A DNA stretch of 64,000 nt, taken from the sequence record PZ445521.1. The stretch is one strand, 5' to 3'. This document shows, piece after piece, positions 33 through 47,015 of this stretch (position 1 is the first letter of the stretch; each line of letters starts with the position of its first letter). A model generated the notes under the pieces. It made no database searches. It saw nothing but the letters and a program-made list of their open reading frames with translations, and had not been told where the DNA came from. This DNA comes from a phage. The position numbers and the translations under genes were made by a program.

Positions 33-2012
33 ATGACTTTATTATCTCCGGGCATTGAGCTCAAAGAAACTACGGTTCAAAGCACCGTGGTTAATAACTC
101 TACTGGTACAGCAGCTTTGGCCGGTAAATTCCAGTGGGGTCCTGCTTTTCAGATTAAACAGGTTACAAATGAAGTAGATTTAGTTAATACTTTTGGTCAA
201 CCAACCGCTGAAACTGCTGACTATTTTATGTCTGCGATGAATTTCTTGCAGTACGGAAATGACTTACGAGTAGTTCGTGCTGTTGATAGAGATACCGCTA
301 AAAACTCATCTCCGATTGCTGGTAATATTGAATACACAATTTCTACCCCAGGTAGTAACTATGCAGTTGGAGATAAAATCACGGTCAAATATGTTTCAGA
401 TGATATTGAAACTGAAGGTAAAATTACTGAAGTAGACGCAGATGGAAAAATTAAGAAAATTAATATTCCTACTGCAAAAATTATCGCTAAAGCGAAAGAA
501 GTCGGTGAATATCCGGAATTAGGTTCTAACTGGACTGCGGAAATTTCTTCGTCTTCCTCTGGTTTAGCTGCAGTAATAACTCTTGGAAAAATTATTACTG
601 ATTCTGGTATTTTATTAGCTGAAATTGAAAATGCTGAAGCTGCTATGACAGCGGTTGACTTTCAAACAAATCTTAAAAAATACGGAATTCCAGGAGTAGT
701 AGCTCTTTATCCAGGCGAATTAGGCGATAAAATTGAAATTGAAATCGTATCTAAAGCTGACTACGCAAAAGGAGCTTCTGCATTACTCCCAATTTATCCA
801 GGTGGTGGTACTCGTGCATCTACTGCTAAAGCAGTGTTTGGATATGGACCACAAACTGATTCACAGTATGCTATTATAGTTCGTCGTAATGATGCTATTG
901 TTCAAAGCGTTGTTCTTTCAACTAAGCGTGGTGAAAAAGATATTTACGATAGTAACATCTATATCGATGACTTTTTCGCAAAAGGTGGTTCAGAATATAT
1001 TTTCGCAACTGCACAAAACTGGCCAGAAGGCTTCTCTGGAATTTTAACTCTGTCTGGTGGATTATCATCAAATGCTGAAGTAACAGCAGGAGATTTGATG
1101 GAAGCTTGGGACTTCTTTGCTGACCGTGAATCTGTTGACGTTCAACTGTTTATTGCGGGTTCTTGTGCCGGTGAATCTTTAGAAACAGCATCTACTGTCC
1201 AAAAACACGTCGTTTCAATCGGGGATGCTCGCCAAGATTGCTTAGTATTGTGCTCTCCTCCGCGTGAAACTGTAGTTGGAATTCCTGTAACTCGTGCAGT
1301 AGATAATTTAGTTAACTGGAGAACTGCAGCAGGTTCATACACTGATAATAACTTTAATATCAGTTCAACCTATGCAGCAATCGACGGCAACTACAAATAT
1401 CAGTATGACAAATATAATGATGTGAATCGTTGGGTTCCATTAGCAGCTGATATTGCTGGTTTATGCGCAAGAACTGATAACGTATCTCAGACTTGGATGT
1501 CTCCAGCTGGTTATAATCGTGGCCAAATTTTGAACGTTATTAAACTGGCTATTGAAACTCGCCAGGCTCAGCGCGACCGTTTATACCAAGAAGCTATCAA
1601 CCCAGTAACTGGTACAGGTGGCGATGGTTACGTATTGTATGGTGATAAAACAGCTACTTCTGTTCCTTCTCCGTTTGATCGTATTAACGTTCGTCGTCTG
1701 TTTAATATGTTGAAAACGAATATCGGACGTAGTTCAAAATATCGTTTGTTCGAATTAAACAACGCGTTTACTCGTTCATCATTCCGCACAGAAACTGCCC
1801 AGTACTTACAGGGAATTAAAGCTCTCGGTGGAATTTATGAATATCGTGTAGTTTGCGATACAACAAATAACACTCCGTCAGTAATTGATAGAAATGAGTT
1901 TGTTGCAACATTCTACATCCAACCGGCTAGAAGCATTAACTACATTACCTTAAACTTCGTAGCAACTGCTACTGGTGCAGATTTCGATGAGTTAACTGGT
2001 CTTGCAGGTTAA
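33..2012 (+). CDS. 18: tail sheath protein gp18
   Basis: 659 aa, same length as T4 gp18; recognised sequence; GAGGA RBS before ATG. Confidence 0.95.
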   Translation: MTLLSPGIELKETTVQSTVVNNSTGTAALAGKFQWGPAFQIKQVTNEVDLVNTFGQPTAETADYFMSAMNFLQYGNDLRVVRAVDRDTAKNSSPIAGNIEYTISTPGSNYAVGDKITVKYVSDDIETEGKITEVDADGKIKKINIPTAKIIAKAKEVGEYPELGSNWTAEISSSSSGLAAVITLGKIITDSGILLAEIENAEAAMTAVDFQTNLKKYGIPGVVALYPGELGDKIEIEIVSKADYAKGASALLPIYPGGGTRASTAKAVFGYGPQTDSQYAIIVRRNDAIVQSVVLSTKRGEKDIYDSNIYIDDFFAKGGSEYIFATAQNWPEGFSGILTLSGGLSSNAEVTAGDLMEAWDFFADRESVDVQLFIAGSCAGESLETASTVQKHVVSIGDARQDCLVLCSPPRETVVGIPVTRAVDNLVNWRTAAGSYTDNNFNISSTYAAIDGNYKYQYDKYNDVNRWVPLAADIAGLCARTDNVSQTWMSPAGYNRGQILNVIKLAIETRQAQRDRLYQEAINPVTGTGGDGYVLYGDKTATSVPSPFDRINVRRLFNMLKTNIGRSSKYRLFELNNAFTRSSFRTETAQYLQGIKALGGIYEYRVVCDTTNNTPSVIDRNEFVATFYIQPARSINYITLNFVATATGADFDELTGLAG

Positions 2013-2028
2013 TACGGTGCATTCTAAA

Positions 2029-2046
2029 GGCCTGTTTCGGCAGGCC
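2029..2046 (+). terminator. GC-rich hairpin after gene 18 (ggcctg..caggcc)
   Basis: inverted repeat read directly; no strong T tract. Confidence 0.4.
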
Positions 2047-2106
2047 ATATAAATACACTATATCCTTAATTCTTTAATTCTATATGCCCTAGGTTAAACA
2101 TAGGGA

Positions 2107-2114
2107 TATAAATA
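2107..2114 (+). promoter_or_regulatory. T4-type late promoter TATAAATA upstream of gene 19 (second copy at 2048-2055)
   Basis: exact TATAAATA 15 nt before ATG. Confidence 0.7.
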
Positions 2115-2128
2115 CTACAGAGGCTAAT

Positions 2129-2620
2129 ATGTTTGTAGATGATGTAACACGCGCGTTTGAATCGGGTGATTTTGCGCGACCTAACTTATTCCAAGTAGAA
2201 ATTTCTTATCTTGGACAAAATTTTACGTTTCAATGTAAAGCCACTGCTTTACCAGCTGGTATTGTAGAAAAAATTCCAGTCGGATTTATGAACCGTAAAA
2301 TTAACGTAGCAGGTGATCGTACATTCGATGACTGGACTGTTACAGTAATGAACGATGAGGCACATGATGCTCGCCAGAAGTTCGTTGATTGGCAAAGCAT
2401 TGCTGCGGGGCAAGGAAACGAAATTACTGGTGGAAAACCTGCCGAGTATAAAAAGAGCGCTATCGTTCGTCAATATGCTCGTGACGCTAAAACAGTAACA
2501 AAAGAAATTGAAATTAAAGGTCTGTGGCCTACTAACGTGGGTGAACTTCAATTAGATTGGGATTCAAACAATGAAATCCAAACCTTTGAAGTAACTCTTG
2601 CTCTCGATTATTGGGAATAA
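2129..2620 (+). CDS. 19: tail tube protein gp19
   Basis: 163 aa, same as T4 gp19; follows gene 18. Confidence 0.95.
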   Translation: MFVDDVTRAFESGDFARPNLFQVEISYLGQNFTFQCKATALPAGIVEKIPVGFMNRKINVAGDRTFDDWTVTVMNDEAHDARQKFVDWQSIAAGQGNEITGGKPAEYKKSAIVRQYARDAKTVTKEIEIKGLWPTNVGELQLDWDSNNEIQTFEVTLALDYWE

Positions 2621-2652
2621 AATGAATGGGGAGAAATCCCCATCCTGCTTAA

Positions 2653-4277
<1,625 letters not shown>

Positions 4278-43788: not shown

Positions 43789-44105
43789 AAGTCCTCAACT
43801 TGAAAATCGTCTTTAAACACTCGGTTAACTATATGAGCTATTATATCACCATGACACGGCTTTGGTTTACATGTGCATCCTAGCCTCATTCCACGTAAAG
43901 GCTCTAAATGTGCTTTAGTTATTTCTCCGGATTTAATTCGACGTATAAAATCTTTTTTGAATAATTCAATGGCAGCCTCCCGGCTGCCAGCATCTTTACC
44001 GACGTAATTTCCCCAAAATGTACCACGGTGAATATTAACATCAAAGTCGGATTTATATTTATTCACTACTCGGCATAGACGGCCCACGCTGGAATAATTC
44101 GTCAT
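43779..44105 (-). CDS. hypothetical protein with CxC...CHGD motif (nrdA.1 position)
   Basis: 108 aa; [13 protein letters not shown]. Confidence 0.6.
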
Positions 44106-44322
44106 ATTGTTTTTCCGTTAAAACAGTAATATCGTAGTAACAGTCAGAAGAAGTTTTAACTGTGGAAATTTTATTATCAAAATACTCACGAGTCATTTTA
44201 TGAGTATAATATTTTTTACCATAAATGATAATAGGCTGTTCTGGTCCTGGAACTTCTAACTCGCTTGGGTTAGGAAGTGTAAAAAGAACAACGCCAGAAG
44301 TATCTTTAAATCGTAAAATCAT
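44059..44322 (-). CDS. hypothetical protein (nrdA.2 position)
   Basis: 87 aa. Confidence 0.55.
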
Positions 44323-45179
44323 ATTGCCATTTTCCCTTTAATTGCTGGATGCGATTCATAATTTTCAAGGATAAAATCTTTCGGTTTCATGTATTCAGTT
44401 AACCAGTAAAGCTGTGTTTCGGTGTCACAATTTCCAAACTCTATAGGCCAATCAATTTTAAGTTCACATAGTTCTTTAGGCTCACGACGTAAAATTTCTT
44501 TACATTGCTCAGTATGATTCATATAGATGTGAGTATTACCACCAGAAAATATCAAATCTCCTGGGATAAGATTACACATCTTAGCCACAATATGCGTCAA
44601 GGCAGCGTACGAGGCAATGTTGAATGGCAATCCCAAGAAAACATCTACACTTCTTTGGTACCATTGTAAATCAAGATAACCATTACGCACATTAAACTGA
44701 TAGAACATATGACAGGGCGGTAATGCCATTTGATTGATTTCAGCTGGATTCCATGCTGAAACGATTTGACGTCGATCAGTTGGTAATTTTTTAATACGAT
44801 CAATAGTTTCAACTAATTGATCCACACCACCGAAATCACGCCATTGTTTACCGTATATAGGACCAAGTTCACCACTATGATATCCTAGGTCTTTAGCCTG
44901 GTTTTCATAGTTATCGTCCCAAATAGTTTTGCCTTGAATAAGACTACCATGAGTGCGAAGACGTAAATCATTAACATTGGTAGAACCGGAAATAAACCAT
45001 AAAAGCTCAGCAATGCATGCATTCCAGGCGAGCTTCTTAGTTGTTACTGCAGGAAAACCTTTACTTAAATCCCAGCGTAATTTAGTACCGAACAAAGCAA
45101 TTGTTCCTGTGCCCGTTCGGTCATCGGTTTCATAGCCATTTTCAAAAATGTCTTTAATTAAATCTTGGTATTGTTTCAT
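44319..45179 (-). CDS. td: thymidylate synthase, uninterrupted
   Basis: 286 aa continuous ORF; active-site PPCH present. Confidence 0.93.
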
Positions 45180-45224
45180 TTAGTACCTTATATAAATTAT
45201 AATACATTTTATGAAGCTAAATAA

Positions 45225-45572
45225 TCAATACGGTTTAGCATCAAATTTTCTCTCAATTTCAGGCGTGAAATATAATTCTTTACCGCGTTTGGAAAAGCGA
45301 CCAATAATATGATAATTATTCTCATCAAACGTGATATTACCAATATCCATAGCTTTCAACCAAATATCGATATTTCTATCCAACTTTATGTCAAAATTCC
45401 AATACGGAGAACTATTACCGAAAATACTGCAAGCGGATTCAGTAAAACAACTACTATAAATCTTATCTTTAGGAACTACTAATTGATAGACACCTTTAAT
45501 AAACTGAGGACCCTGCCATTTTGGTTGTTTCGTGTCTTTTTCTAATAGAATAGGGTAATAATTAAAATTCAT
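45225..45572 (-). CDS. hypothetical protein between frd and td
   Basis: 115 aa ORF filling a 412-bp gap between frd stop and td start; no motif recognised. Confidence 0.6.
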   Translation of the reverse strand: MNFNYYPILLEKDTKQPKWQGPQFIKGVYQLVVPKDKIYSSCFTESACSIFGNSSPYWNFDIKLDRNIDIWLKAMDIGNITFDENNYHIIGRFSKRGKELYFTPEIERKFDAKPY

Positions 45573-45591
45573 ATTTCCGCCACGCGTTATT

Positions 45592-46418
<827 letters not shown>

Positions 46419-46429
46419 ATTATCTCCTA

Positions 46430-46762
46430 TTAAAAAGGATCAGGAACATATCCGCTAGCTTTAATCATTTTAATTAACGTTAACATTCCTTTGTTAACTG
46501 CTCGTGAGATTTCATCAAAAACTTCATCACTAAAAAGTTCTAACACGCCCTTCTGAACTTTTAATTTACAGCCAACAATTTCTTCATCGCCTATAGTAAA
46601 TTCATTACCACCAATTCCACCGAAAAACTTAATTACACCAGTTAACTGTCTTCCACGAGAATATGGGTCGTGTGATAAAGTAATATGAGTCACCCCGGGT
46701 ACAGTTTTAAATTGGCAGCGAATATTTACTTGTGAAATTCCAGTTACATGAATGTCAGACAT
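46430..46762 (-). CDS. hypothetical protein (frd.2 position)
   Basis: 110 aa. Confidence 0.6.
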   Translation of the reverse strand: MSDIHVTGISQVNIRCQFKTVPGVTHITLSHDPYSRGRQLTGVIKFFGGIGGNEFTIGDEEIVGCKLKVQKGVLELFSDEVFDEISRAVNKGMLTLIKMIKASGYVPDPF

Positions 46763-46772
46763 AATATTTTCC

Positions 46773-47015
46773 TCAAATAGACTTTTTCACAATTTTCCAA
46801 TCAGCTTTAAACTGATCGACGTCAGAGTGATAAATCCAAAATCCTGCGCTTTCACCGTCTTCATAAAGCGGACACCCATCACATTCATCTTCCCATCCCA
46901 TGCCACGTAAAAGGTGTTCAGCTTTTTCAACAAGTTCAGAATCTTTACCGATGATATTAAAATACCATTTACCTCTAACTTCCGAATCTTTGATGCTCTG
47001 ACGTTGTAATCTCAT
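46773..47015 (-). CDS. hypothetical protein (frd.3 position)
   Basis: 80 aa. Confidence 0.55.
   Translation of the reverse strand: MRLQRQSIKDSEVRGKWYFNIIGKDSELVEKAEHLLRGMGWEDECDGCPLYEDGESAGFWIYHSDVDQFKADWKIVKKSI

Follow-up and report, generated by a model that had tools for sequence, protein, structure and literature searches.

td.1, an uncharacterised gene between frd and td of T-even phages, is an old resident of the interval that T4 most likely lost by deletion between short repeats

The open reading frame between the dihydrofolate reductase gene frd and the thymidylate synthase gene td of the phage studied here is td.1, a T-even gene that is already in the databases but uncharacterised. 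We analysed a 64,000-nucleotide stretch of phage DNA from sequence record PZ445521.1, hereafter the window. A sequence-only reading of this DNA had described the frame as an extra gene inserted at the junction. Our data suggest the opposite history. td.1 is a real T-even gene and an old resident of the frd-td interval, T4 most likely lost it, some RB69-like phages appear to have regained it by recombination at a short motif, and its product may be a binding protein. We put the probability of this account as a whole at roughly 80%.

Results

Layout of the frd-td interval

td.1 lies on the minus strand (45225..45572), with its ATG at 45572 and its TGA at 45225. It encodes a protein of 115 aa (13.6 kDa, pI 8.5) with the N-terminus MNFNYYPILLEKDTKQPKWQ..., a member of PHROG 1928. 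The upstream neighbour is frd (45592..46173, minus strand; 193 aa from MIKLVF; stop codon at 45594-45592). The downstream neighbour is an intronless td of 286 aa (44319..45179, minus strand), which is followed by nrdA.2, nrdA.1 and nrdA. In records 99-100% identical, frd carries this annotation, and the window frd is 96% identical to T4 frd at the nucleotide level and 98% at the amino acid level. The interval between them, 45180-45591, is 412 bp long. The sequence-only reading had placed a 115-aa frame in this gap and had described frd and td of T4 as adjacent and overlapping. Both points are confirmed: the frame is intact from ATG to TGA, and in T4 frd runs directly into td with a 4-bp overlap (ATGA).

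The same reading had assigned td.1 an A/T-rich upstream region, which is in fact located downstream of the gene. Upstream, the frd-td.1 spacer (45573-45591, AATAACGCGTGGCGGAAAT) is only 19 nt long and has 47% G+C. A weak GGCGG at 45577..45581 (minus strand), 4 nt before the ATG, may act as the Shine-Dalgarno sequence of td.1. The A/T-rich td.1-td spacer (45180..45224, minus strand) is 45 nt long, has 15.6% G+C and holds the td ribosome-binding site AAGG at 45189-45186. In F2 and NHEP36 this spacer is just 13-15 nt, so most of the 45 nt lacks conservation. A promoter and terminator scan around td.1 did no better than on shuffled sequence, in which promoter-like matches are just as frequent, and an Rfam scan of 44000-47000 gave nothing credible. 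The GC3 of td.1 (26.7%) is close to that of its neighbours (25.8-28.2%). An HMM search of the whole stretch found no td.1 paralogue elsewhere in the window.

Two further small frames of 81 aa and 110 aa lie on the minus strand between frd and the frd.1 homologue (46173-46418 and 46430-46762). Both are absent from T4 and RB69, and their T6 counterparts are annotated RB32ORF231c and RB51ORF237. The T4 frd region is thus reduced on either side of frd. In a related metagenome contig, a DUF7247 gene is found between frd.1 and frd. The window td is itself a mosaic. Over the first 180 nt, identity to T2H and T4 is 90-98%; the middle is nearer to RB69 and F2 (87-92%), and the last ~140 nt are just 43-70% identical to any of these four references. 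Overall, td is 83% identical to T2H in nucleotides, and the adjacent td.1 is 95% identical.

td.1 is a named but uncharacterised gene

Database searches, which the sequence-only reading had proposed as a check, matched td.1 as a named gene in both nucleotide and protein collections. The T2H record AY262132.2 names it td.1 (product "hypothetical protein", note Td.1; protein ABI48932.1), and T2H Td.1 and the window protein are 99% identical over the same 115 aa. In T6 the gene is annotated RB32ORF229c, and in T2, in RB3 and in Tequatrovirus genomes by the hundred it is listed as a hypothetical protein. T2H td.1 has the same position between frd and td, the same spacers and the same direct repeats as the window gene. 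We found no substantial difference between the window gene and its T2H, T6 and RB3 counterparts, and the window carries simply another allele. The protein matches PHROG 1928 (function unknown) with E = 1e-35, its residues 4-111 aligning to profile positions 2-125 of 126. The exact protein belongs to a cluster of 154 near-identical database entries, each named "hypothetical".

At the nucleotide level, Shigella phage JK38 and Escherichia phage T4_ev240 match the 601 bp around td.1 at 100% identity. The 601-bp query matched 522 phage records, and in 356 of them the match covers the whole junction including the frame. By tblastn, proteins at least 90% identical to the td.1 product are encoded in 363 records. 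With a cut-off of E up to 1, none of 19 family members has a match in Pfam or NCBIfam. Searching PDB sequences with a profile returned only noise, such as a dynein at E = 0.01. Our search of the literature for td.1, RB32ORF229c and phrog_1928, including the mobE, Petrov 2010 and BASEL papers, found no characterisation or phenotype.

td.1 and its paralogues occupy the same interval across T4-like phages

td.1 is present in about 360 of about 520 Tequatrovirus records (~70%). In the window, T2H, T6, F2 and NHEP36, all three genes share one strand, with td.1 in the middle. Outside Tequatrovirus, homologues with 27-46% identity occupy the frd-td gap of Mosugukvirus PM2, Gelderlandvirus S16, Kanagawavirus ZX14, Jiaodavirus KP17, Marfavirus P545, Moonvirus CF1 and Winklervirus Kc304, so that at least seven other genera have a homologue at this position. 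Taken together, the homologues outside Tequatrovirus are 27-66% identical to td.1, and often two paralogues stand in tandem. PHROG 1928 and the paralogue group (such as PM2 gp191/gp192 and S16 gp155/gp154) share with td.1 the frd-td location, a length of 99-125 aa and the motifs L-L-x-x-D-x-x-Q-K-K-W, H-G-I-Y and G-R-F-x-K-x-G-x-E-x-x-F. The second copy differs by a ~20-residue insertion after the conserved Trp.

The arrangement of the genes differs between the genera. Tequatrovirus has one copy, set off by spacers of 19 nt and 45 nt, whereas other genera usually have two copies. In these genera, the frames of td.1 homologues generally overlap those of their neighbours by 1-26 nt, commonly with a 4-nt overlap of the ATGA type, which indicates translational coupling of the homologues to frd and td. 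The nearest relatives outside Tequatrovirus are encoded on two metagenome contigs (63-66% identity) with the order frd-ATGA-td.1-second gene. On the longer of the two, a 69-aa gene and then td come next. The second gene of the interval is a td.1 paralogue and has Q-K-K-W, H-G-x-Y and G-R-F-x-K-x-G-x-E in common with td.1.

Larger searches did not widen this range. Run exhaustively against 1.84 billion representative proteins, phmmer returned 16 true homologues, all small phage proteins; a match to the TPR protein P0018 was spurious. A profile built from 28 sequences and run against 5.8 billion proteins found solely phage proteins of 113-119 aa. The homologues in these searches are single-domain proteins of about 100-120 aa, all on T4-like phage contigs, and neither search found a fusion or a functional name among them.

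This distribution shows that td.1 has long resided between frd and td in the T4-like phages that infect enterobacteria, as one copy or as two tandem paralogues. The idea of an insertion at the junction does not hold, since T2, T6, RB3 and ~70% of Tequatrovirus records have an orthologue at exactly this position. The sequence-only reading was right that T4 lacks the gene, but td.1 is not peculiar to the window phage, because most T4 relatives carry it. An orthologue at the same position is thus found in the relatives of T4 but not in T4 itself.

The T4 and RB69 junctions resemble deletion scars

A pair of direct repeats brackets the gene. The left copy (45587..45598, minus strand; coding strand TAAATGAAATAA) spans the frd stop codon, and the right copy (45171..45182, minus strand; coding strand TAAATGAAACAA) spans the td start codon. 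The pair (family D2 of the repeat finder) is 12 nt long and 11/12 identical, and its copies are 416 nt apart. In an alignment of the window, T2H and T4, the T4 sequence reads ...GAATCAGTATA|TAAATGAAACAATACC..., so that the T4 junction equals the T2-type sequence minus exactly the 416 bp between the repeat copies. In RB69 (Mosigvirus) the junction is collapsed as in T4 (GTGTATAAATGAAACAATACC), and TATAAATGAAACAATAC is common to both. Among the matches listed, contiguous junctions of the T4 type occur in T4, T4T, RB55, RB59, FL12, FL18, G2133, HY03, SG1, JEP6 and G28. By subtraction, they make up roughly 30% of Tequatrovirus records.

The divergence of the flanking gene bears on the direction of the change. 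In frd, dS between T4 and the window phage or T6 is 0.11-0.15, and F2, which carries td.1, is the outgroup with 0.40-0.53. T4 frd therefore groups with td.1 carriers, which makes a loss in the T4 lineage the more parsimonious event. For td.1 itself, dS between the window phage and F2 is 0.82, comparable to or above the divergence of frd, which fits vertical descent of td.1 together with its flanks. We infer with fair confidence that T4 most likely lost td.1 by a repeat-mediated deletion. Recombination between the two 12-nt repeats would have produced the frd/td ATGA overlap of T4. The loss scenario requires a second, identical deletion for RB69. Since the repeat and the coupling motif are one and the same, such a recurrence is plausible. 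With the opposite polarity, an insertion into an overlapped junction would also leave a 12-nt duplication, but this course is less parsimonious.

A link between the loss of td.1 and the td intron with I-TevI was considered and ruled out, since T6 has both td.1 and the intron. In T6 (838-3106) the td group I intron with I-TevI accompanies td.1, and the presence of each is independent of the other.

td.1 has moved as a cassette into RB69-like phages

Most RB69-like phages, which are of the Mosigvirus type, lack td.1, but NHEP29, NHEP36 and SF carry it next to an RB69-like frd. In NHEP36, frd is 98% identical to that of RB69 in nucleotides, and td.1 is 97% identical to td.1 of Tequatrovirus F2. 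Across NHEP36 1917-3724, 60-nt windows are 95-100% RB69-like up to the frd stop and 100% F2-like from the td.1 ATG. The switch of parent falls exactly at the ATGA of the frd stop and the td.1 start, and the sequence returns to RB69-like within the first ~100 nt of td. The cassette is thus a single gene with TAAATGAA at either end. We are fairly confident that NHEP36 and SF regained td.1 by recombination at this coupling motif, which would permit a precise, cassette-like exchange.

Arbiol et al. are said to have described, in 2010, mobile regulatory cassettes called PeSLs in T4-type genomes. PeSL shuffling resembles what we see here in that a single small frame is gained or lost through very short repeats at gene boundaries. 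The elements differ, however: the td.1 repeat is the translational-coupling motif TAAATGAA(A), whereas a PeSL is a cassette of promoter and stem-loop. The view of td.1 as a mobile or accessory gene, which also came from the sequence-only reading, stands in part. The gene is accessory, dispensable and polymorphic, being absent from T4 and carried as a cassette by NHEP29, NHEP36 and SF, but it is not an insertion at the junction.

The F2 junction has a peculiarity of its own. In F2 (1894-2511), an extra A in TATAAA(A)ATGAAAT removes the frd stop codon, so that the annotated Frd gains 12 residues (...VYKNEIATGGKYEF) and has an 11-nt overlap with the td.1 start.

td.1 is under very strong purifying selection

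Comparisons of td.1 alleles within Tequatrovirus give a dN/dS of 0.01-0.05, with dS up to 0.97. For comparable pairs, the values are 0.05-0.23 for frd and 0.03-0.14 for td. The constraint on td.1 therefore equals or exceeds that on the two neighbouring enzymes, and purifying selection on it is very strong. These values establish that the protein is functional, and they argue against both an arms-race gene and a decaying selfish element.

Td.1 is predicted to form a small beta-barrel

Structure prediction, also among the proposed checks, gave a confident fold. The AlphaFold2 model of Td.1, made from a 19-sequence alignment, has a pLDDT of 91 and a pTM of 0.84. It has predicted strands at 6-12, 27-34, 38-40, 48-50 and 62-64, a helix at 68-76, and strands at 80-82, 86-96 and 99-104. 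In the DSSP order, which describes secondary structure only, these elements become E6-12, E27-34, E38-64 (three short strands), H68-76, E80-96 and E99-104. The model fits a small beta-barrel with the OB-like strand order b1-b2-b3-helix-b4-b5. By its predicted strand order, Td.1 would share with the OB-fold domains of SSB/RPA, S1, HIN and Teb1 a barrel of five strands in which a helix separates the third strand from the fourth. A comparison of the model with solved structures gave no significant match, OB domains included; the weak matches are mostly OB domains.

Q16, W19, G27, G91, K95 and G97 are invariant over both paralogue groups in the 19- and 28-sequence alignments, and L9, Y29, R92 and F93 are near-invariant. 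Placed by the predicted secondary structure alone, the conserved residues would be located in the b1-b2 loop and the b4-b5 hairpin. In the OB-fold domains named above, the loops of this region form the usual binding face. The pI of family members ranges from 6.8 to 9.4.

Discussion

Our reading of what Td.1 does is tentative: Td.1 may be a non-enzymatic, single-domain binding protein, translated from frd-td-nrdA transcripts during the prereplicative period. Its ligand would be nucleic acid or a protein of host or phage, contacted by the loop Q16-x-x-W19 and the hairpin G91-R-F-x-K95-x-G97. The phage would profit from it under some conditions but could do without it, as T4 and RB69 lack the gene. 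A bolder version is doubtful. It would make Td.1 and its paralogues a new class of small-barrel fold and function, namely a strongly constrained, non-enzymatic partner protein in the thymidylate operon. Such a protein could be a regulator or adaptor of DHFR/TS or of the replication-coupled dNTP machinery, or a binder of a conserved host target. If this were true, T4 and RB69 would have learned to manage without Td.1, and the ATGA overlap would be a secondary deletion scar and not an ancestral design.

The sequence-only reading had proposed an anti-defence or exclusion gene. In its fuller form, td.1 would be an accessory factor for counter-defence, exclusion or host takeover, acting early as a small protein that binds an immunity or housekeeping protein of the host and neutralises it. 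Many small early ORFs of T4 have roles of this type. For its part, td.1 is small, lies in the early region without an enzymatic motif, is dispensable and polymorphic among close relatives, and has been transferred laterally at least once. We nevertheless consider this role unlikely. Arms-race genes are usually diversifying, but dN/dS of td.1 is below that of DHFR and TS. In at least seven genera its position is fixed and its translation is coupled to that of metabolic genes, and PADLOC matched 0 families at E up to 1. The searches of 5.8 billion and 1.8 billion proteins brought up no named homologue of Td.1, and the literature searched holds no published phenotype. The proposal therefore found no support in PADLOC, in the selection on the gene or in this literature.

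Td.1 might instead be an auxiliary, non-catalytic component or regulator of thymidylate and dNTP synthesis, for example an adaptor for Frd, Td or NrdAB. The constant place between frd and td, the 1-26 nt overlaps in many genera and a constraint equal to that of an enzyme fit such a partner. However, T4 and RB69 run the same pathway without td.1. In addition, NHEP36 pairs an F2-type td.1 with RB69-type Frd and Td, which argues against allele-specific co-adaptation of td.1 with these enzymes. Furthermore, the whole early region of T4-like phages is colinear, so that frd-td synteny is weak evidence for a thymidylate role. On balance, a role of this kind is improbable.

In several BASEL phage records (MZ501065, MZ501066, MZ501089, MZ501106 and MZ501047), td.1 is labelled "putative homing endonuclease"; the phages with this label include FelixPlatter, KarlGJung and others. 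According to the BASEL methods, putative homing endonucleases were named solely in a comparative-genomics context, with no domain evidence for the label. The label thus appears to rest on comparative presence and absence. It implies a free-standing endonuclease of a new type that cuts frd/td junctions lacking td.1 and spreads by gene conversion. The genetic pattern is compatible with such an enzyme, as presence is polymorphic with sharp boundaries between conserved genes, and the precise transfer into an RB69-like backbone has flanks that switch parent at the gene ends. td.1 also resembles the seg, mob and hef genes in being small, wedged into the nucleotide-metabolism region, patchy among close relatives and laterally transferred. 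The protein itself, however, makes this activity very unlikely. The 19 family members have no Pfam or NCBIfam match (E up to 1) to GIY-YIG, HNH, LAGLIDADG, PD-(D/E)XK or any other nuclease, and an EDxHD or other catalytic motif is likewise absent. With Q, W, G, G, K and G as its invariant positions, the family offers no invariant Asp, Glu or His to bind metal, so a metal-dependent nuclease is unlikely; fold searches did not return any nuclease. Unlike seg, mob and hef genes, td.1 has no nuclease motif or fold and no conserved acidic or His residue, and it combines very strong purifying selection with a deep, position-fixed distribution. Its constraint, age, fixed position and coupling differ from the decay of self-promoted seg and mob genes. 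Moreover, its boundaries fall on 8-12-nt repeats, and repeats of this length suffice for recombination with no nuclease involved.

A chance reading frame or decaying pseudogene, which would draw on the small size and the absence from T4 and on nothing more, is effectively refuted by a gene intact in hundreds of genomes, family motifs kept down to 22% identity, the low dN/dS and the confident AlphaFold2 model.

In this study, we traced the history of a small gene at a well-known junction, and the value of the finding is mostly corrective. In a comparison with T4 alone, an ancestral and widespread gene looks like an insertion. The "putative homing endonuclease" label has no sequence or structure support and is spreading in GenBank, and annotation transfer is likely to extend this spread. 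Td.1 is an unusually constrained small protein with a confident predicted fold that lacks a solved counterpart, which makes it a reasonable target for knockout and interaction studies in T2 or T6. The textbook frd/td ATGA overlap of T4 is apparently the scar of a 416-bp deletion between repeats built from the coupling motif, and the same motif may permit the gain of the gene as a cassette.
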